From assembly GCA_964575495.1 (NCBI GenBank), contig CAZNRV010000207.1:1-27232 (forward strand): a stretch of 27,232 bases of DNA. The letters are read 5' to 3'. Shown one piece after another: positions 9,800 through 20,604 of this stretch; position 1 is the stretch's first letter; each line of letters starts with the position of its first letter. Origin of the DNA: an uncultured bacterium. GTDB taxonomy: Bacteria; Hydrothermota; Tepidihabitantia; Tepidihabitantales; Tepidihabitantaceae. Below the pieces are notes generated by a model that worked only from the letters and a program-made list of their open reading frames with translations, was not told where the DNA came from and ran no database searches. Both the position numbers and the translations under genes were made by a program.

Positions 9800-11476
9800 T
9801 CAGCGTATGAGGGTTGGGTTTAACCTGATTGCCTGCTCCAGCGCCTCAACCGCCTTTTCCTTCAACCCCTTGTCACGATAGGCGATGCCCAGGTTGTACC
9901 AGGCACCGGCATGCTTGGGGTTAAGTTCAATCGCCTTTTGATAGGCGTGGATGGCGCTTTCTATGTCGTTGAGTTCATAATAGGCGCGTCCCAGGTTGTA
10001 ATAGGCGGGGACCAGTTTCGGGTCGAGTTCCAGTGCGTCCTGATAGCAGGTAATCGCCTCATTGAGGTGATGCTGTTCGAGGTGGAGGTTGCCAAGGGCA
10101 AGGTAGGCAGCGGTGTAGTCGGGTTTGAGTTCTATTGCCATATGAAGGGCGGCAATGGCTTGGTTGGTTGTGCCCATTTTCTCATATGCCAGTCCCATAT
10201 TGTACCAGGCTTCGGGAAATTTCGGGCTGGTTTCTAATGCCTTGCGATAGGCGCCTATCGCCCGGTGCCAGTCGTTGGCAAGGGCATAGGCATTGCCCAG
10301 AACATGGTGGAGGGTGTCGGAATTGGGGGCGATTTTAAGTCCTTTTTCAAGGACGGCGATCGCCTTTTCGGGCAGGTTGTTGCGCAGATAGCAGAGTGCG
10401 AGTTCGGCGTAGGTCTCGATTGCATCCGGGATAAGTTCAAGGGCATGGCGGTAGTTTTCAATCACCTTGTCCCGGTGGGTTGAGCTGAAGTAGGTGTGGG
10501 CAAGGCTGGCAAAGGACAGGCCCATCAGTTCCGGGATGCTGAGCCTTTTGCCAGTAATCATCGGGGTAAAGGAGAGGGGTTCGTGTTTGATTGGGTTCCA
10601 GTAAACGCTGCGGTAATCCATCACCGTTTCAATGCAGATGGCACCGGATTCATAGATGTAGCAGACTTGAAACCCGAATTTGGATATGATGATGCCATCA
10701 AGAATGGTCAGTCCGAGGGCATTGCCAGCGGTCGGGCGGTCAGAGAGATAGGCATCAATGACTTTGGTCAGAAGAAAGCCGGTGGGTGCGACCCGCTCGG
10801 GTTTCAGTTCCCAGACCCGTTCCCGCACCGCGAGGAGGAGGCGAAACTGGGGTTCAAACCCGGCGCCTCTGCTGCTTAAGCCGGTCAGTTCCAGCGCCTG
10901 TTTTACTGGGGGCGCGGTAATTATCTTTTCGAAGAGGGTGTCGAGTTTTTGCCCGTATTGCTCAAATTCGGTGCGGGCACGCAGTCCGGCGATGATGAAC
11001 ATTATGTAGGCAAGGGCAGATGCCTCACCAATCAGGCTGGTGGCAAGTTCAAGTGCTTTGAGGAGTTTTTGGGTGGAATCGGCGATGTTGCGGGGCATGA
11101 GCGCGGGGCAGGAGTGGATTTCAAGAAGGCGGGTGGTTTCAGAAGCGGGCAGGATGCCGAGCGCGCGCTGGATGAGTTCATCACGGCGATTAACCTCGAG
11201 GTTTAGGTTGTGCAGCTGTTCGTGAACAAGGAGCGCCTCGGCATGGGCACGATTGATCTCCAATGTCCGGGCAAGCGGGTTGTCGGACTGGGTTGAACCA
11301 ATGCCGGAATGGTGGAAAGGCAGAGCCCTTATGCCAGTGAGCCAGGCTTTGAGCCGTTGCGGATGGTAAGGCGGCAGGTCTTGCGGAAACCGCTGCCGGC
11401 TTTGCTCAAGAAGCAGGTCAATACCGGTGATTGCTTCCTGCAAGGTCTCGACGCTATTCTCTTCGTAACTGTTCAT
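9800..11476 (-). CDS. TPR-repeat protein with a central transglutaminase-like/SirB1-like segment
   Basis: About 7 C-terminal TPRs (e.g. AWYNMGLAY...AIELKP, AYYNLGRAY...AIELNP); central LTKVID...TGNALGLTIL...KFG resembling Transglut_core2/SirB1 helices. Confidence 0.85.
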   Translation of the reverse strand: MNSYEENSVETLQEAITGIDLLLEQSRQRFPQDLPPYHPQRLKAWLTGIRALPFHHSGIGSTQSDNPLARTLEINRAHAEALLVHEQLHNLNLEVNRRDELIQRALGILPASETTRLLEIHSCPALMPRNIADSTQKLLKALELATSLIGEASALAYIMFIIAGLRARTEFEQYGQKLDTLFEKIITAPPVKQALELTGLSSRGAGFEPQFRLLLAVRERVWELKPERVAPTGFLLTKVIDAYLSDRPTAGNALGLTILDGIIISKFGFQVCYIYESGAICIETVMDYRSVYWNPIKHEPLSFTPMITGKRLSIPELMGLSFASLAHTYFSSTHRDKVIENYRHALELIPDAIETYAELALCYLRNNLPEKAIAVLEKGLKIAPNSDTLHHVLGNAYALANDWHRAIGAYRKALETSPKFPEAWYNMGLAYEKMGTTNQAIAALHMAIELKPDYTAAYLALGNLHLEQHHLNEAITCYQDALELDPKLVPAYYNLGRAYYELNDIESAIHAYQKAIELNPKHAGAWYNLGIAYRDKGLKEKAVEALEQAIRLNPTLIR

Positions 11477-11598
11477 AAAACAATTTCCACTGTCATTTCA
11501 ACCACAGATCAGTTACAGGATAACAAAAATTTAGCAAAGGTCAAATTAAATTATGAGCGGGTTGCGGTTCTGGGCAAGATTGGCAGGGGTTAACTTGT

Positions 11599-11627
11599 TT
11601 GACAAGGCTAAATATTTTTAATAATTT
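11599..11627 (+). promoter_or_regulatory. sigma70-type promoter, probably leaderless purH transcript
   Basis: TTGACA (11599-11604), 17-nt spacer, TAATTT (11622-11627), 6 nt, then TTG at 11634; no Shine-Dalgarno. Confidence 0.55.
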
Positions 11628-11633
11628 TACCTG

Positions 11634-12803
11634 TTGGATGAGATAAAACTGCGCTACGGCACCAATCCGCATCAGCGGTCTGCCCGTATCTATGTGCCTA
11701 GTGGCAAACTGCCCTTAAAGGTGCTCAACGGTGCACCCAGTTACATCAATATCATTGATGCCTTGAACTCCTATCAACTGGTAAAGGAGTTAAGGGAGCT
11801 CAGCGGTCTGCCCGCGGCGGCAAGTTTCAAGCATACCAGCCCGGCAGGTGCGGCAATCGCAAGGCCGCTTTCAGATGAACTCAGGCGCTCACTTTTTGTG
11901 CCCGAGCAGGAACTTTCTCCGCTTGCCTGCGCATATGCGCGCGCGCGTGGTGCGGATAGGATGGCGACCTTTGGGGATTGGGCTGGTTTTTCTAGTGTGG
12001 TTGATGTGCCGACCGCGCTTTTTCTGTCAAAGGAGATTTCTGACGGCTGCATTGCCCCGGGTTATGAGCCGGAGGCGCTTGAGATTCTGAAACAAAAAAA
12101 GGATGGGAAATACCCGATTCTTGAGATTGACCCCGAGTGGCAGCCGCCAACAATAGAGGCCAGACAACTTTTTGGTATCTTCCTTGAGCAGGAGCGCAAC
12201 AATGTCCGGATTGATGAGAACCTGCTTTCTGATGTGGTAACTGTGAAAAAGGCGATTCCGGAAAATGTCAGGCTGGATTTGCTCAGCGCGTATCTCACCC
12301 TGAAATACACCCAATCAAACTCGGTCTCAGTTGCCTATGACGGTCAGGTTATCGGTGTGGGCGCGGGTCAGCAGTCAAGGATTCACTGCACCCGGATTGC
12401 CTGTGCCAAGGCGGACAAGTGGTTTTTAAGGCTCCATCCCAAGGTTTTAAACATCAAATTCAGGAAGGGGACAAGCAAAGGGGAGAAGGCGACCGCAATT
12501 GATGTCTATCTGGAGGAGAACGCATCTTTTGAGGAAAAACGGAGCTGGGAAAGGCACTTTGCCGAACCGCCTGAGCCCATCACGGCTGAGGAGAAGATGG
12601 AGTGGCTTTCAAGGTTTGACGGCATCTGTCTGGCATCTGACGGGTTCATCCCTTTTCGGGACAATATTGACCGGGCGGCAAGGGGCAATGTCAAATACAT
12701 CATCCAGCCCGGGGGCTCAACCCGGGATGAGGGCATCATCCGTGCGGCTGATGAATACGGAATGGTGATGGTCTTTACCAAAATCAGGCTGTTCTATCAC
12801 TGA
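11634..12803 (+). CDS. purH: AICAR formyltransferase (short PurH lacking the N-terminal IMP cyclohydrolase domain)
   Basis: LRYGTNPHQ, AAASFKHTSPAG, LKYTQSNSV, GVGAGQQSRIHC, LASDGFIPFRDNI, IIQPGGS; 389 aa with no MGS-like domain. Confidence 0.9.
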   Translation: MDEIKLRYGTNPHQRSARIYVPSGKLPLKVLNGAPSYINIIDALNSYQLVKELRELSGLPAAASFKHTSPAGAAIARPLSDELRRSLFVPEQELSPLACAYARARGADRMATFGDWAGFSSVVDVPTALFLSKEISDGCIAPGYEPEALEILKQKKDGKYPILEIDPEWQPPTIEARQLFGIFLEQERNNVRIDENLLSDVVTVKKAIPENVRLDLLSAYLTLKYTQSNSVSVAYDGQVIGVGAGQQSRIHCTRIACAKADKWFLRLHPKVLNIKFRKGTSKGEKATAIDVYLEENASFEEKRSWERHFAEPPEPITAEEKMEWLSRFDGICLASDGFIPFRDNIDRAARGNVKYIIQPGGSTRDEGIIRAADEYGMVMVFTKIRLFYH

Positions 12804-13329
12804 AGGTCTCAATCCGGCAATTGGCTTCAAGTCGATTTTTAGCCTGGTTCTGAGATTAAAACCTTATTAAAAATCAGGGCTCAAGTCTAACCTTTTGCCT
12901 GCCTGCGTTTTTGCGCCTGTTGAGAAATCTTCGCTTCTGCCAAACCCCGGGCTTGAGCCCAAGACCGCCCTTAACAGAATTTCCAGCAGAGACCCAAATT
13001 AAGATTAAAGATTCAAGCCCAAAATCGGTAAAATAACCACTCTTATAACGGGGGTGGTGGAGGGGACGAGCCCTCATTTCCCATCGCCTTAAAAATCAAG
13101 CATTTATAAAATTATACCCTGAAATAACCAACTGCATTTTTAGGGGAATAGCGTTAGGTGCTATCAAAATTAAAGCAAAACAGCATGCCCAAGAAACTTC
13201 AAATTCCTTGACTTTCCCACATTCTTGCCAATTATCCCCTGCCTGATGCGGGAAATAACAGACAAGAATAACAGCAAAGCACAATTTAACCACGAATATG
13301 TCGAGTAGTTACTGTCAGGCGGTCTTTAA

Positions 13330-13616
13330 TGTAATCCTTGCCTAATTACTTCAAAGGCGCGGTGTTGTTTCAATGCCGGAAGGGCGATTGATGGCGCGGG
13401 AAACAAAATTCTGTTGATTGCACGCAAGAAGGGAGTTTCTAATGAATCTGAAAATAGACCTGCAGTCGCTATTAGTCTCTGGCGGAAAATAGGCCTCGTG
13501 CCACTTAATTCACTTGGCGAAATTGGACCTCAGCGCCGAGACATCCACGATGCCTTTACCATCAGTAGAGCTGAAACTGCATATCCTGTTTTCTGGGGCC
13601 ACGACGGTACAAAAAA
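13330..13616 (+). pseudogene. possible gene remnant, perhaps from a DNA methyltransferase/type IIG restriction-modification protein
   Basis: The frame is open from 13330 without a good start and reads ...LGEIGPQRRDIHDAF...AYPVFWGHD before running into repeats. The family resemblance is from memory only. Confidence 0.25.
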
Positions 13617-13622
13617 GGTAGA

Positions 13623-13858
13623 GGTAGAGGTAAAGGCGGTAGTTGCGAGGGCGCTCTGCCCGGGCAGGTGGCGAAAGCCACAAGCCCGTGGCAATCTGAT
13701 GCTTGAGATTGCTTCGCGGAGCCTGCCCCGAGCCTGTGTCCAGAAGGAGATTGCCACCTGCCTTTGGCAGAACGCAATGACACAGGCGTGGGAGCTCCTC
13801 GCAATGACACAGGCGTGGGGGCTCGCAATGACGGAAAGTGGGTAGAGGTAAAGGCGGT
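13623..13858. repeat. REP-like palindromic mosaic bounded by 18-bp direct repeats
   Basis: GGTAGAGGTAAAGGCGGT at 13623-13640 and 13841-13858. Inside are GTGGCAATC (13688) pairing with GATTGCCAC (13749), GAGATTGC twice, and CGCAATGAC three times (13773, 13800, 13824). Confidence 0.8.
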
Positions 13859-16221: not shown

Positions 16222-17502
16222 TTATGTGGTAATCTTCAAGGCGCGGCGCGGGCAGTTCCAGACACATTCAAAACAGCGGATGCATTCAGCCTGATTCGGG
16301 TCCTCAAAAGGTTCGATGTCGGTTGGGCAGACCTGGCGGCAGACACCGCAGCGGTTGCAGGTTTCAGTGTTGAGTTCCAGGTGCATAAGGCTGATTTTGT
16401 TGAATAAAAGGTAAATTGCGCCAATCGGGCAGATAAGGCGACAGAACGGGCGTTTAATGGTAATCGCAGCCCAGATGACAAAAAGGAGAATTCCGACCTT
16501 GAGATAAAAAAGCCAGCCCACAAGTGCGCGCAAGCCCTGAACCGGGTCCCAGAGAACCAAAGGGATTCCTGCCTCAAGTGTTCCCTGGGGGCAAAGTTTG
16601 CAGAACCACGGTTCAGCAGTAAGATAAGGCAGAGCCACGGCAACAAGTATTAGAAAGGCAAATTTCAACTTAGTTGCGGGCAAGAATACCTTCAGCACCT
16701 TGTCCAGCAATAAGACCAAAAGTGCTGTCATGAGCGTAAACGCCAGTCCAAGTTCGGCGCCGGCGAATGGACCGACCTGAAACGGCTTGCCGAAAAGGCT
16801 CAGCGCAAACCCGAGTGGCGCCGCAATTAATATCACCGGCACACCACCCACAAGACTGAAAAGGGTCATACCTATTATCCCAGTGGCTAACCCCAAGTTA
16901 ATCTCATACTTAAAGGCAATTAGAATTCCAAGCCCGATGCCCACAAGCATTCCACCAAGCCACCATCTTTCCGGTAATCTTAACTTTCCTTTAATAACGC
17001 TGTAAAGTAAAACCAGCATAAAAGGCAGCCAGGCAAAAATGAGCGCTTTCCAGATGGCAACTTGGACAAAAATAGCAAGCAGGACAACCGCAACCAAACC
17101 CACAGCGCCGACAACCACAAACGAAATCCAGCGTTTTGCCCTTGCCCGCGGTTCCAATTTAATTTTGTAGAGCAAATCCTGCCACAACCCGAAAGGGCAA
17201 ATCCAGGCGCAGGCAGTTCTGCCAACAAATGCGCCGATAAGGACAAAAAACCCAATTATTACCCAGGGGACATTCTGCCACCAGGCTGTGCCTTTCAGCC
17301 CAATAATCTGCTGGAGGGAACCGAGCGGGCAGGCAAAAACGGAAAGTGGTCCGCCGTAGCAGTTAAGAACCGGCTCAGGGATGGATTTGAGAAAGCCCGA
17401 ATATATGATTTTATTCTGAATATAGGCGAGGATGTAGCCGTTTAAGATAACGGTAGCGATAATCTGACCGAGCCGATAGGGTGCAATTCTTCTTTTAGGC
17501 AT
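16222..17502 (-). CDS. membrane 4Fe-4S binding protein (NapH/MauN-like polyferredoxin)
   Basis: Multiple TM helices; CX3CP motifs (CAWICP, FCKLCP, CRLICP), LNCYGGP...ACPLG, and two C-terminal CxxCxxCxxxCP motifs (CNRCGVCRQVCP, CIRCFECVWNCP). Confidence 0.9.
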   Translation of the reverse strand: MPKRRIAPYRLGQIIATVILNGYILAYIQNKIIYSGFLKSIPEPVLNCYGGPLSVFACPLGSLQQIIGLKGTAWWQNVPWVIIGFFVLIGAFVGRTACAWICPFGLWQDLLYKIKLEPRARAKRWISFVVVGAVGLVAVVLLAIFVQVAIWKALIFAWLPFMLVLLYSVIKGKLRLPERWWLGGMLVGIGLGILIAFKYEINLGLATGIIGMTLFSLVGGVPVILIAAPLGFALSLFGKPFQVGPFAGAELGLAFTLMTALLVLLLDKVLKVFLPATKLKFAFLILVAVALPYLTAEPWFCKLCPQGTLEAGIPLVLWDPVQGLRALVGWLFYLKVGILLFVIWAAITIKRPFCRLICPIGAIYLLFNKISLMHLELNTETCNRCGVCRQVCPTDIEPFEDPNQAECIRCFECVWNCPRRALKITT

Positions 17503-17509
17503 ATTTTAA

Positions 17510-17526
17510 GGGTCTACACGAGACCC
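17510..17526 (-). promoter_or_regulatory. SECIS-like hairpin for the small selenoprotein
   Basis: After the TGA: 11 nt (CTTTCCTGTAT), stem GGGTCT, loop CGTGT, stem AGACCC; G then U in the apical loop; loop starts 17 nt after the TGA. Confidence 0.75.
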
Positions 17527-17651
17527 ATACAGGAAAGTCATATCTGGGAGGCAAAACCGTGAATAACTGTCAGCATCCCCAGTTTGATGCCGAGAACAAT
17601 CGCTGCCGCACCAAGAACAGCAAAAGTAATGAGGATAAGCCGGCGCTTCAT
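17514..17651 (-). CDS. 45-aa membrane-anchored probable selenoprotein with a C-terminal UxxC motif (CD1871A-like); absent from the ORF track
   Basis: Manual translation gives MKRRLILITFAVLGAAAIVLGIKLGMLTVIHGFASQI-U(TGA 17540-17538)-LSCMGLV-TAG. The U-x-x-C-x-G ending matches the C-x-x-C-x-G ending of small CXXC proteins found upstream of 4Fe-4S membrane proteins (recalled). A SECIS-like hairpin follows the TGA. Confidence 0.85.
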
Positions 17652-17659
17652 AAAGTAAA

Positions 17660-17737
17660 TCTCAATCTCAAAGCACTAAACCCTAAACAAACCATAAGCC
17701 ACGAACTAAAAACCAATTCGGTCATTTCGAGCTTGTT
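17660..17737. repeat. degenerate heptamer-like run plus a GTCATTTCGAGC...GAGAAATC REP-like half element
   Basis: GTCATTTCGAGCTTGTTGAGAAATCC at about 17711-17736 has the same architecture as the GTCATTGCGAG...GCAATC element near 13700; adjacent low-complexity CTAAA/CAAA repeats. Confidence 0.5.
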
Positions 17738-17775
17738 GAGAAATCCCTCTCCTGCCCATTAGAATTTTTCATATT

Positions 17776-19227
17776 TTATATCCTGCTGATTAACTGCACC
17801 TTCACCCCGCGGAAAGGCGCCTCATACCGGCAGACTCCACCGGAACAGGTATAGCCTCCTTTTTCTGCGCCAATCCTTATCCTGAGCACATTGCGCTCAT
17901 TGATGTTGTAAACCGTCTCAAAGACAGGCCATGACTTTTGATTATCATACCGTTTCAGCGAATCCTTGTCCACGCCCTGCCAGCCAATAGTAAAAAGCCA
18001 CTTCTCGCCATATCCATAACTCAAGCTCACAGCCGGCTCGTGATATAACCAGCGCGCGCCTTTGGCAGTGTCGCTCGGTCTTTCATCAACCCAACCCAAC
18101 TCCGCCTCCAGCCCAAAGGTATGCTCGCCAAAAAGATAGTTAATCAGGAGAGCTGGGCGGTCGGTTATCCGCCCTTTTGTTCCCAATTCAATATTTCTCT
18201 GCAGCATATGATTAAACTTGCCTTCAAAAGTCCAGTTAGTGTTAGGCGAATACCGCGCCTTTGCCTCTGCTTCCAGCACGCCGGTGCTCGTGTCATCGTG
18301 GACAAAAAGCCTGCCCAGGTCCACACCTAAATAAAGTCCGGTTAAAGGCATCCCTGAGACCTCTAAACCAAATCCTCTTTCATCCACCCCCCGATTAACT
18401 GCCACCCCGGACTTAATCGGTGTGGGTTGGTCATTGTAATGGTAAATTCCCTCAGGAAAGCCCAGACGGGTGTAATCAACAAACTGACCGACAAGAGAAA
18501 CTCCGGCAAGGCTGGCGCTCGTATTTATTACATAACCAAAACCATTTTCTCTGCCGCCAATCCCCGGTCTTGTTCCTAACCGCCAGCACACCTCGCCCCC
18601 AATGCTCGCCAAACCGAAATCAAGCCTGACATCACCACCAAAAAGTTCGGTAAATGCCTTGGCGCTGGGGTCGACATCGCGATTAATCCGCACATATCTT
18701 GAGCCAAAACCTAAAAACCTCACTGGTCTTGAACTCAAATTAGCGCCTAAGATCTGGTCAGTGCTATCCAGTTCATTCATTAACTTATAACTGTTCTCCT
18801 GAAAAAACACATCCCTTAGCCTTCCGCCCAGAAGGGTGATTTCGCTGCGCAAAGGCAGCCTCAGAATCCCTCTCACACCGTGCAGGCTTTTGTAATGCCG
18901 GAAGTCGTCATCAGAATAGGTCGCGAGCGCGAGACCCTGACCAAAGGTGGCAAAAAATCTTCCGAGCCTGATTTCCAGCTCCTTCAGGTTATAGCCGATT
19001 GAATAATCAAACAGCCGCAATGGTCTACGCACCTCAGGGCTGTGCTTTGACGGTTCAAACAAAAGAATCCCTAATTCTGCATCAAAATCACCATAACGGG
19101 CTGTCAAATCAAGCTTATCCTCAAGATGGGTTGCCCACTGCTCTTGGTATGCCCAGAATTCTGCCCGGTTGCTACCCTGAATGGTAAAATTGGTAGCAAA
19201 GATGGTGGTGAGAAGGATAAAGGTCAC
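17776..19227 (-). CDS. probable outer-membrane beta-barrel protein with a C-terminal Cys pair (DUF6029-like)
   Basis: Alternating amphipathic beta-strand pattern throughout; RLGRFFATFGQGLAL; C-terminal GAEKGGYTCSGGVCRYEAPFRGV resembling the GG..C.GGVCR motif of DUF6029 (recalled). Confidence 0.7.
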   Translation of the reverse strand: MTFILLTTIFATNFTIQGSNRAEFWAYQEQWATHLEDKLDLTARYGDFDAELGILLFEPSKHSPEVRRPLRLFDYSIGYNLKELEIRLGRFFATFGQGLALATYSDDDFRHYKSLHGVRGILRLPLRSEITLLGGRLRDVFFQENSYKLMNELDSTDQILGANLSSRPVRFLGFGSRYVRINRDVDPSAKAFTELFGGDVRLDFGLASIGGEVCWRLGTRPGIGGRENGFGYVINTSASLAGVSLVGQFVDYTRLGFPEGIYHYNDQPTPIKSGVAVNRGVDERGFGLEVSGMPLTGLYLGVDLGRLFVHDDTSTGVLEAEAKARYSPNTNWTFEGKFNHMLQRNIELGTKGRITDRPALLINYLFGEHTFGLEAELGWVDERPSDTAKGARWLYHEPAVSLSYGYGEKWLFTIGWQGVDKDSLKRYDNQKSWPVFETVYNINERNVLRIRIGAEKGGYTCSGGVCRYEAPFRGVKVQLISRI

Positions 19228-19243
19228 CAGACCGCCTACCTAT

Positions 19244-19810
19244 TCATTTCTGTTCGTGCGGCCCCTCACCAGTTGGTTCCTCTTCTTTTTTCTCCTCGGG
19301 GAGCCATTTGCCCATCTCTTCGGCAATTCTTTTCTCATCGCCCTTCTTATAGCCGATATGGGTATAGACAATCTCGCCATCCATATTGATGAGATAGGCG
19401 GTGGGTTTAATGATGATATTGTATGCCTTTTTTACCTTCTGTTCCTGATCAAGTAGCACGATATAGGGCCATTTCTTGGCAGCAACAAACGCTTTAACCC
19501 TCGGTTCATCTGAAGGCTTATCAACCGAAAGCGCGACAATTTTCAACCCTCGCTCCTTTAGTGAATCATAAACTGGCACCAGCGCGTCCAGCTCTGCGAT
19601 GCAGTTCACGCAGGGTAAATCCCAGCATTCCATATAAACTGGGCCTGTCTTCAAAAGCTCCCAAAGGGTTACCTCATTTCCTTCGAGATCGGTCAGGGTG
19701 AAATCCGGCGCCTTTTCATACTCGGTCTCCTTACTTTCCGCCTCACTCCCGCCGTTTAGACCGAGAAGCAGACCTAAAACCACCAAAAACCTCCAACTGA
19801 ACCTAATCAT
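19244..19810 (-). CDS. TlpA-family thiol-disulfide oxidoreductase, exported
   Basis: Signal peptide; APDFTLTDLEG, WDLPCVNC (CxxC), IVALSVD, PTAYLINMDG; start overlaps the upstream stop (ATGA). Confidence 0.9.
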   Translation of the reverse strand: MIRFSWRFLVVLGLLLGLNGGSEAESKETEYEKAPDFTLTDLEGNEVTLWELLKTGPVYMECWDLPCVNCIAELDALVPVYDSLKERGLKIVALSVDKPSDEPRVKAFVAAKKWPYIVLLDQEQKVKKAYNIIIKPTAYLINMDGEIVYTHIGYKKGDEKRIAEEMGKWLPEEKKEEEPTGEGPHEQK

Positions 19811-20604
19811 CTTGTCTCCTCTCCTTCAACTCTCCGCTTAGTCACAGATTGAAGCACCGCCTTTGTGCTGAGGTCCTGAACCGAAACCGCCACTCCAACG
19901 TGTGTCTTCTGATAATCGCGGACATTAGTTACCAGCAGTGTATCAAAATCCTCTCCGAACTTCAGGTTTATTGGAATCCCGAAACTGTCGCCAATCACCT
20001 GACGGACCGTCATTGGTGCATAGGTTGTGTCGCCGATGAGTAACGAATAATATGGGACGCTGTCCTCATAGACAATTGCCACCAGCCTCAGGCTTGTCAT
20101 GGTGTCAATCACTGAATCGGTCGGTATAATTCTGACCCGGAGCCGCAGCGTCGCAGAGTCGATGCTGGTGTGAATGCTATCCAGTTCCATCTCAAGGAAT
20201 GTCTTGCGCGAGCGTGCGGCGTCAATCATATCCCGATATACCGGATAGAATGAGTCTGGAATCGTAACTTGGGGTGAACGCAATGAGCCGTTAAAGAAAG
20301 CTAAGGGCGCCTCCAGTCCGACACCATACCATTCATTCCTGGCGTTGCCTGCCGGCGAAGAAAGTTGCGGATGGGTTTCGGCCGAGTAATAAATCACAAA
20401 AGCCATAGAATCGCCATAGAGGTATTCCAGACTGTCAAGCGCCCGCGCCGCGGACGCACAGTAGTCTCATTCATCCAGTGGTGTTGAAAAGAGTTCAACC
20501 AGAACCACACGGTTTGCCTCACGGACAATCTGCGGTGCATCCGAACAAGAAATCGTTATCAGCACCAAAGCGATGGCGGCAAAAAGCAACAAGCGGTACT
20601 CCAT
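19807..20604 (-). CDS. Omp28-like thioredoxin-fold lipoprotein with selenocysteine (UxxC), 265 aa; joins track ORFs 20467..20766 and 19807..20406
   Basis: The two ORFs are in the same frame, separated by a single TGA at 20469-20467. Read-through gives MEYRLLLFAAIALVLITISC (lipobox)...RVVLVELFSTPLDE-U-DYCASAARALDSL...YGVGLEAPLAFFNG...RLVAIVYED...VAVSVQD...VLQS, typical of Omp28-like Trx folds. Confidence 0.85.
20431..20462 (-). promoter_or_regulatory. SECIS-like hairpin in the Omp28-like gene
   Basis: After the TGA: GACT, ACTGT, GCGTCCGC, loop GGC, GCGGGCGC, TTG bulge, ACAGT. This gives 5-bp and 8-bp stems with a G-first loop starting 17 nt after the TGA. Confidence 0.75.

Follow-up and report, generated by a model that had tools for sequence, protein, structure and literature searches.

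The prokaryotic selenoprotein families catalogued in a review of May 2026 number 119 (PMC13188914). They include micro-selenoproteins with a C-terminal selenocysteine (Sec), namely UXX-star (NF041114 and NF041211) and KCU-star (NF033934), as well as TsoA, the 'LULAXC motif selenoprotein' (NF045695; Haft and Tolstoy 2025), and an Omp28-related family (NF045500, 'GOS_C'). The same review gives the constraints for bacterial SECIS elements (bSECIS), which are a loop of 3-9 nt, a stem of 4-16 bp, an MFE of -7.5 kcal/mol or below, a G within the first two loop positions and a UGA-to-loop distance of 16-37 nt (PMC13188914). The 45-residue peptide described here resembles UXX-star and KCU-star in having its predicted Sec near the C-terminus, and for this reason the SECIS must in each case sit at or past the stop codon. 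However, Sec lies two to three residues from the C-terminus in those families, whereas in the peptide it lies eight residues from the end, in the motif U-x-x-C, and the stop codon falls within the SECIS stem. TsoA is similar in its short motif, in which Sec is followed by Leu with a Cys nearby, but the spacing there is U-x-x-x-C as opposed to U-x-x-C. No match (E <= 0.01) was found between the peptide and the HMMs of UXX-star, KCU-star and TsoA. Moreover, the peptide family scored above the cut-off of no Pfam or NCBIfam (20.0) model and has no entry among the 119 catalogued families (PMC13188914), and would therefore be a new family of bacterial selenoproteins.

A further family of comparable build is CD1871A (NF040920), whose members likewise have ~40-45 residues, a hydrophobic helix at the N-terminus and CxxC at the C-terminus. 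To judge from the name these are Cys proteins, whereas the family described here has an invariant tail of its own, [U/C]-L-S-C-[MI]-G. The initial annotation had taken the peptide for a Sec-containing CD1871A family member; the Sec-containing part of this held, whereas membership of the family did not. The NF040920 profile aligned end to end (positions 2-37 of 38), but the window peptide scored 16 bits and its Cys relatives 14-23 bits against a cut-off of 32, and they are therefore distant relatives and not CD1871A members by the NCBI threshold. Literature searches for CD1871A, and for selenoproteins together with WOR-3, returned nothing. A profile search of 5.8 billion proteins with the peptide family gave 861 matches; among the 120 listed, none carried a Pfam domain and every protein named by its source was a 'hypothetical protein'. 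The ESM Atlas likewise gave 'hypothetical protein' clusters only.

Two kinds of described membrane system resemble the genes that surround the peptide. CcdA/DsbD proteins with ResA, TlpA or CcmG are similar in that the gene for a membrane component adjoins one for a secreted thioredoxin of the TlpA type, and in that Cys pairs are redox-active. Unlike these, the peptide module contains no DsbD_TM, its membrane component being an iron-sulfur protein together with a micropeptide, and the analogy is functional only. The Fer4_5 membrane polyferredoxins NapH, MauN, NosR and CcoG share CX3CP motifs and a C-terminal 2x[4Fe-4S] domain with the peptide's probable partner, but the latter differs from them in further invariant Cys pairs, predicted to lie in outer loops, and in having a CxxC/UxxC micropeptide dedicated to it. 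The window, by which we mean the whole stretch of 27,232 nucleotides that was analysed, comes from a genome (G000) belonging to candidate division WOR-3, going by homologues of the NapH-like protein. The features of the window that bear on the peptide are as follows.

17514-17651, minus strand: gene for the proposed 45-residue membrane selenopeptide (ATG at 17651, stop TAG at 17516-17514), recognised from its translation and from orthologues in 37 related genomes
17538-17540, minus strand: TGA codon 38, predicted to encode Sec, first position of U-x-x-C, aligned with Cys in 24 + 42 homologues
17510-17526, minus strand: putative SECIS hairpin, 6-bp stem and 5-nt loop CGUGU (GGGUCU/CGUGU/AGACCC), starting 11 nt after the TGA
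16222-17502, minus strand: NapH/MauN-like polytopic membrane protein with a C-terminal 2x[4Fe-4S] ferredoxin domain (Fer4_5 and Fer4 matches; NapH models below cut-off)
17776-19227, minus strand: DUF6029 outer-membrane barrel (Pfam PF19494) with C-terminal CSGGVC, inserted in WOR-3 between the TlpA gene and the peptide gene
19244-19810, minus strand: secreted TlpA/ResA-like thiol-disulfide oxidoreductase (CVNC), next to the peptide/NapH-like pair in WOR-3
19807-20604, minus strand: Omp28-like lipoprotein with a second in-frame TGA (codon 46, 20469-20467; U-D-Y-C), first gene of the co-directional run

The initial annotation had described a 45-residue reading frame with an in-frame TGA in an apparent intergenic gap, missed by ordinary gene callers, and both points were borne out. 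The gene has the DUF6029 barrel gene (19227-17776) on one side of its gap and the NapH-like 4Fe-4S gene (17502-16222) on the other. Its minus-strand translation (17651-17517) begins with the basic residues MKRR and an ~18-residue hydrophobic helix, followed by KLGMLTVIHGFASQI, the TGA, LSCMGLV and the TAG, placing the predicted Sec at residue 38 of 45 within the C-terminal tail QI-U-LSCMGLV. Gene callers returned only a 37-aa ORF that ends at the TGA (17540-17538), and the public records of Sec forms are 36-37-residue truncations only (database entries P0001-P0003), such that annotation pipelines systematically truncate what is, at 45 residues, among the smallest selenoproteins proposed. Rfam gave no match within 17300-17900, and a scan for promoters and terminators around the peptide gene gave nothing telling. 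The sequencing runs found to hold the window sequence were of hot-spring DNA only, and none was RNA. General reassignment of TGA was also considered and ruled out, since TGA is a common stop in G000, where it terminates 262 of 702 long open frames.

Homologues of the peptide were collected in two ways. A six-frame search of 61 related genomes gave a match in 55. In 37 of these genomes, 45 loci had a single in-frame TGA at the same column, followed by LSCMGLV and a stop, whilst 24 loci from the same 61 genomes had Cys at this column with the same tail (QI-C-LSCMGLV). Fourteen genomes combine a single Sec form with a single Cys form, G000 itself among them (Cys form on contig C265, 225-356). The second collection, fetched via the NapH-like protein and partly overlapping the first, comprised 34 TGA loci and 42 Cys loci, the latter from other WOR-3 lineages, Stahlbacteria, Zixibacteria, TA06 and Chloroflexota/Anaerolineae. 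The alternation of Cys and TGA at codon 38 that had been anticipated was thus found in both collections. The reading frame is also conserved past the TGA: whilst N-terminal halves fall to ~40% identity, the tail is nearly invariant, and its codons vary synonymously. Among the 36 distinct Sec-form sequences the Leu codon after the TGA is CTT in 8, CTC in 3, CTG in 16 and CTA in 7, and the Cys codon is TGT in 12 and TGC in 24. These codons lie upstream of the hairpin and therefore RNA structure does not explain their synonymous variation.

In a maximum-likelihood tree of the NapH-like protein a single branch (SH-aLRT 98) separates the 34 Sec-linked rows from the rest, so that one change of state suffices, although the tree was rooted by its midpoint only. 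Given that Cys forms occupy all other branches, the simplest reading is a single replacement of Cys by Sec in the ancestor of the Sec clade. One genome, G019, departs from its relatives in carrying a Cys form (M-I-C-L-D-C-I-G) instead of a Sec form. A search for selA found none in G019 or in G027, both of genus g14 and ~92% complete, and G027 has two TGA forms.

A 6-bp hairpin starting 11 nt past the TGA, with G-U in its loop, had been reported for this gene and is present, the G-U occupying loop positions 2-3. The stop codon of the peptide, UAG, lies inside it, with the U being the last base of the loop and AG opening the 3' arm. Its dimensions (loop of 5 nt, stem of 6 bp, G at loop position 2, UGA-to-loop distance of 17 nt and MFE of -8.8 kcal/mol) satisfy the bSECIS constraints. 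Taken singly, the hairpin of the window has z = -1.9, and 10 of 200 shuffles folded equally well. When 43 distinct Sec-form sequences were aligned (A1), 97.7% of cells at the six proposed pairs proved to be paired. Pair 24-34, between the wobble base of a Gly codon and the first base past the stop, is C-G in 17, G-C in 14 and U-A in 11 sequences. In pair 25-33 the initial base of a Leu codon meets the last base of the stop, as C-G in 41 (CUN with UAG) and U-A in 2 (UUA with UAA). None of 500 shuffles reached the observed covariation score, sliding the partner arm by 1-3 columns destroyed the pairing, and RNAalifold independently predicted the same helix. Judged from its recurrence, along with the TGA and the tail, in the 45 loci of 37 related genomes and from its covariation, the hairpin is more than chance. 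In the same register, Cys forms had 3.2 of 6 positions paired compared with 5.7 of 6 in Sec forms, with a mean MFE of -6.4 versus -13.9 kcal/mol. The stop codons of Sec forms are TAG or TAA, and never TGA. By its geometry and covariation the hairpin is a SECIS, predicted to direct Sec insertion at codon 38 with the gene's own stop codon embedded in it. It would be a very compact natural SECIS in which the identity of the stop (TAG or TAA) covaries with a Leu codon, and as such useful for SECIS models and for the engineering of short Sec tags. Similar hairpin geometry is found after the TGA in G000's own selD and in the neighbouring Omp28-like gene. Moreover, the codon before the TGA is ATA in all 36 distinct Sec-form sequences (loci L019-L064), whilst Cys forms also use ATC, ATT, ATG, TTG and CTT at that position; recoding of the UGA may require the invariant ATA as its context.

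In the window, the AUG of the NapH-like gene follows 7 nt after the end of the hairpin, which could instead regulate translation of that gene, with the TGA a true stop and the product a peptide of 37 residues, as gene callers and public records have it. We consider this highly improbable. Such a product would be without the only invariant motif of the family, and the synonymous variation in codons between the TGA and the hairpin speaks for translation past the TGA. Cys homologues retain the same tail without the hairpin; conversely, many relatives keep the hairpin although tens of bases separate it from the next start or the NapH-like protein has a different N-terminal extension.

The genes required for Sec decoding by a SECIS were then sought. 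Together with tRNA-Sec, selA, selB and selD had been named as genes to confirm in the genome; selA, selB and a Sec-type selD were found in G000, each above its curated cut-off. The first lies on contig C133, whilst the other two adjoin one another.

Contig C237 of G000, 10598-12469: selB, above curated cut-off
Contig C237 of G000, 12731-13639: Sec-type selD with an in-frame TGA (motif C-A-G-U), adjoining selB

The hairpin of this selD has the loop AGUUG and starts 22 nt past the UGA. A second selD-like gene, without a TGA, was seen on contig C265 (3565-4263), past the Omp28-like genes located there. Among the 61 relatives, selA was found in 57. tRNA-Sec was not found in the G000 assembly, which is in 286 contigs and has only 24 tRNAs; it scored 72.8-74.2 bits (gathering score 47) in five better-assembled relatives with the Sec form, two of them of the same genus. 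The missing tRNA-Sec would suit read-through of the UGA by another tRNA, for example by near-cognate insertion of Cys or Trp. This explanation is barely credible, however, given that the hairpin fits the SECIS model, covaries and occurs in TGA forms only, that the full Sec machinery is present in G000 or its close relatives, and that TGA is a frequent ordinary stop. Taken together, comparison of the gene across its relatives indicates that it almost certainly encodes a 45-residue single-pass membrane protein in which UGA codon 38 is decoded as selenocysteine.

The peptide is, on the strength of its tail and gene order, the Sec form of a widespread and unnamed family of Cys-x-x-Cys-tailed micropeptides encoded directly upstream of NapH-like genes. 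The NapH-like gene is directly preceded by a micropeptide gene with the tail [U/C]-L-S-C-[MI]-G-[LI] at 76 loci (34 Sec, 42 Cys) out of 79. At one locus (L135) the peptide's stop overlaps the NapH-like start by 1 nt, and in some genera in which the NapH-like protein carries an N-terminal extension its start is still 26 nt after the peptide. Carriers of the micropeptide beside a NapH-like iron-sulfur membrane protein belong to at least four phyla. The NapH-like protein is the probable partner of the peptide. A complex prediction for the Cys-form peptide and NapH-like protein of L135 gave 0.21 against a mark of 0.34, which speaks neither for nor against binding. Against NapH (TIGR02163) the partner of the window scored 52.8 bits in its C-terminal part only, with a cut-off of 213, and all family models were far below cut-off. 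No nap, nos or cco genes were found near it in the window, and the literature on Mad6 yielded only a generic mention of a NapH domain.

In addition to its eight ferredoxin Cys, the NapH-like protein has eight further invariant Cys in four pairs (48/58, 98/102, 301/304 and 354/358 in the numbering of the window), which are invariant in 77 homologues. Hydropathy and the positive-inside rule, read on the 273-residue form in place of a computed topology, are consistent with two CX3CP pairs at cytoplasmic helix ends and the other two pairs in outer loops. For the peptide, the positive-inside rule alone, given the basic N-terminus, predicts that the N-terminus is cytoplasmic and that the tail faces outward. 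The NapH-like protein itself has three sizes: 273 aa in the basic form (L135:2998-3816), 426 aa in the window, where ~160 hydrophobic residues are inserted internally, and 543 aa at L099:2803-4434, where a membrane extension has been added at the N-terminus.

Our preferred reading, which we hold with slightly less than even confidence, is that the peptide is a redox-active small subunit of the NapH-like protein and that its Sec-Cys pair shuttles to periplasmic thioredoxin-fold proteins. The NapH-like protein would receive electrons at its ferredoxin domain in the cytoplasm and lead them past the four invariant Cys pairs on both faces of the membrane. The NapH-like protein would then reduce the Sec-Cys pair of the peptide, which in turn would reduce the neighbouring secreted TlpA-like and Omp28-like proteins via selenylsulfide/disulfide exchange. 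Since Sec occupies the first position of the pair, it would be the attacking nucleophile. The switch from Cys to Sec may in this way serve as a natural label for the reactive residue, which would be the first Cys of the CxxC tail. The Sec codon would then mark the working residue of a conserved and unstudied membrane redox module, whose proposed function becomes directly testable because the switch points to the reactive Cys of the tail.

The same Cys pairs lend themselves to another explanation, in which the Sec/Cys pair and the outward Cys pairs of the NapH-like protein form the ligand set of an extra cofactor on the outer face (an Fe-S cluster or a metal) and the peptide is structural. The four invariant non-ferredoxin Cys pairs, the obligate pairing of peptide and NapH-like protein, and the extreme conservation of the tail, as expected of a buried site, are all in its favour. 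Nevertheless, we regard it as unlikely, as a second paralogue of the peptide precedes Omp28-like genes without a NapH-like gene nearby, no structural support was obtained, and thiol oxidoreductases are listed with this pattern, in which Sec substitutes for the leading Cys of a CxxC (PMC13188914).

The second paralogue precedes Omp28-MAM-T9SS genes. It is a Cys form in small genomes and a Sec form in eight larger ones and, as read from these sequences, is a second, separate case of Sec/Cys alternation. On contig C265 of G000, the Cys paralogue (225-356) is followed by two Omp28-like genes, one of which has MAM and T9SS tail domains.

The gene neighbourhood was also compared among lineages. In the Sec clade the order is Omp28-like (U-D-Y-C), TlpA-like, DUF6029 barrel, peptide, NapH-like, lipA and MFS. 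Other WOR-3 families retain the TlpA, the barrel, the Cys peptide and the NapH-like gene, whilst in Chloroflexota, and likewise in two other lineages, TlpA-like, peptide and NapH-like genes follow in order without the barrel. A Zixibacteria locus has an Omp28/T9SS protein directly after the NapH-like gene. The Omp28-like gene of the window has the lipobox ITISC and a strong hairpin after its TGA, is split by ORF callers, and is syntenic in relatives; its match to the 'Omp28-related selenoprotein' model (NF045500) is weak (22 bits against a cut-off of 200). As such neighbours recur across lineages, thioredoxin-fold proteins and an iron-sulfur membrane protein can be considered the constant companions of the peptide. 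On this recurrence, the peptide is genetically locked to the NapH-like iron-sulfur protein and to thioredoxin-fold proteins. The CSGGVC of the barrel lies ~20 residues from its C-terminus, both in the window and at the distant WOR-3 locus L135 (1383-2858), and a Cys pair in an outer-membrane barrel is unusual.

A role in metal handling was weighed against these neighbours. CcoG is a cupric reductase, and TlpA reduces the copper sites of Sco and CoxB. By analogy, the U/C-x-x-C-M tail of the same selenopeptide could bind a soft metal such as Cu(I), with the NapH-like protein acting as a CcoG-like metal reductase and the TlpA-like protein keeping the Cys of the metal site reduced. Cys forms of the type [VI]-M-C-L-S-C-M-G, with Met on both flanks of the Cys pair, point this way, as does a match of the NapH-like protein to the CcoG model, itself weak (E 0.0024). 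UxxC selenoproteins are also listed in metal-binding families (PMC13188914). However, in none of the contexts scanned were metal-handling genes (copper ATPase, Sco, PCuAC or oxidase) seen, the constant neighbours being thioredoxin-fold proteins, and many members, all Sec forms (Q-I-U) among them, have Ile or Leu instead of the flanking Met. Soft-metal binding is therefore an improbable function for the tail.

Returning to the peptide as a redox subunit, a broader scheme is possible, albeit rather doubtful. The TlpA-like protein, the U/CxxC micropeptide and the NapH-like protein might together constitute an iron-sulfur-driven route for reductant across the membrane, independent of CcdA/DsbD, with the peptide as its mobile catalytic shuttle. 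A clade within WOR-3 would have exchanged the thiol of this shuttle for a selenol, and in WOR-3 the DUF6029 barrel and Omp28-like surface proteins would extend the route into a trans-envelope relay. CcdA/DsbD_TM (PF02683) was not found in G000 and is absent from the peptide and the NapH-like protein. A clean either/or distribution of the module and CcdA/DsbD was considered and rejected, since PF02683 occurs elsewhere in the genome in 39 of the 61 relatives, genomes of the same genus among them. The module is therefore not simply a stand-in for the classical reductant exporter. In three genomes of the same genus a CcdA/DsbD_TM gene was seen 8-11 kb from the locus of the Cys paralogue and Omp28 genes, on the same contig (G001:C2, G004:C14 and G005:C9).
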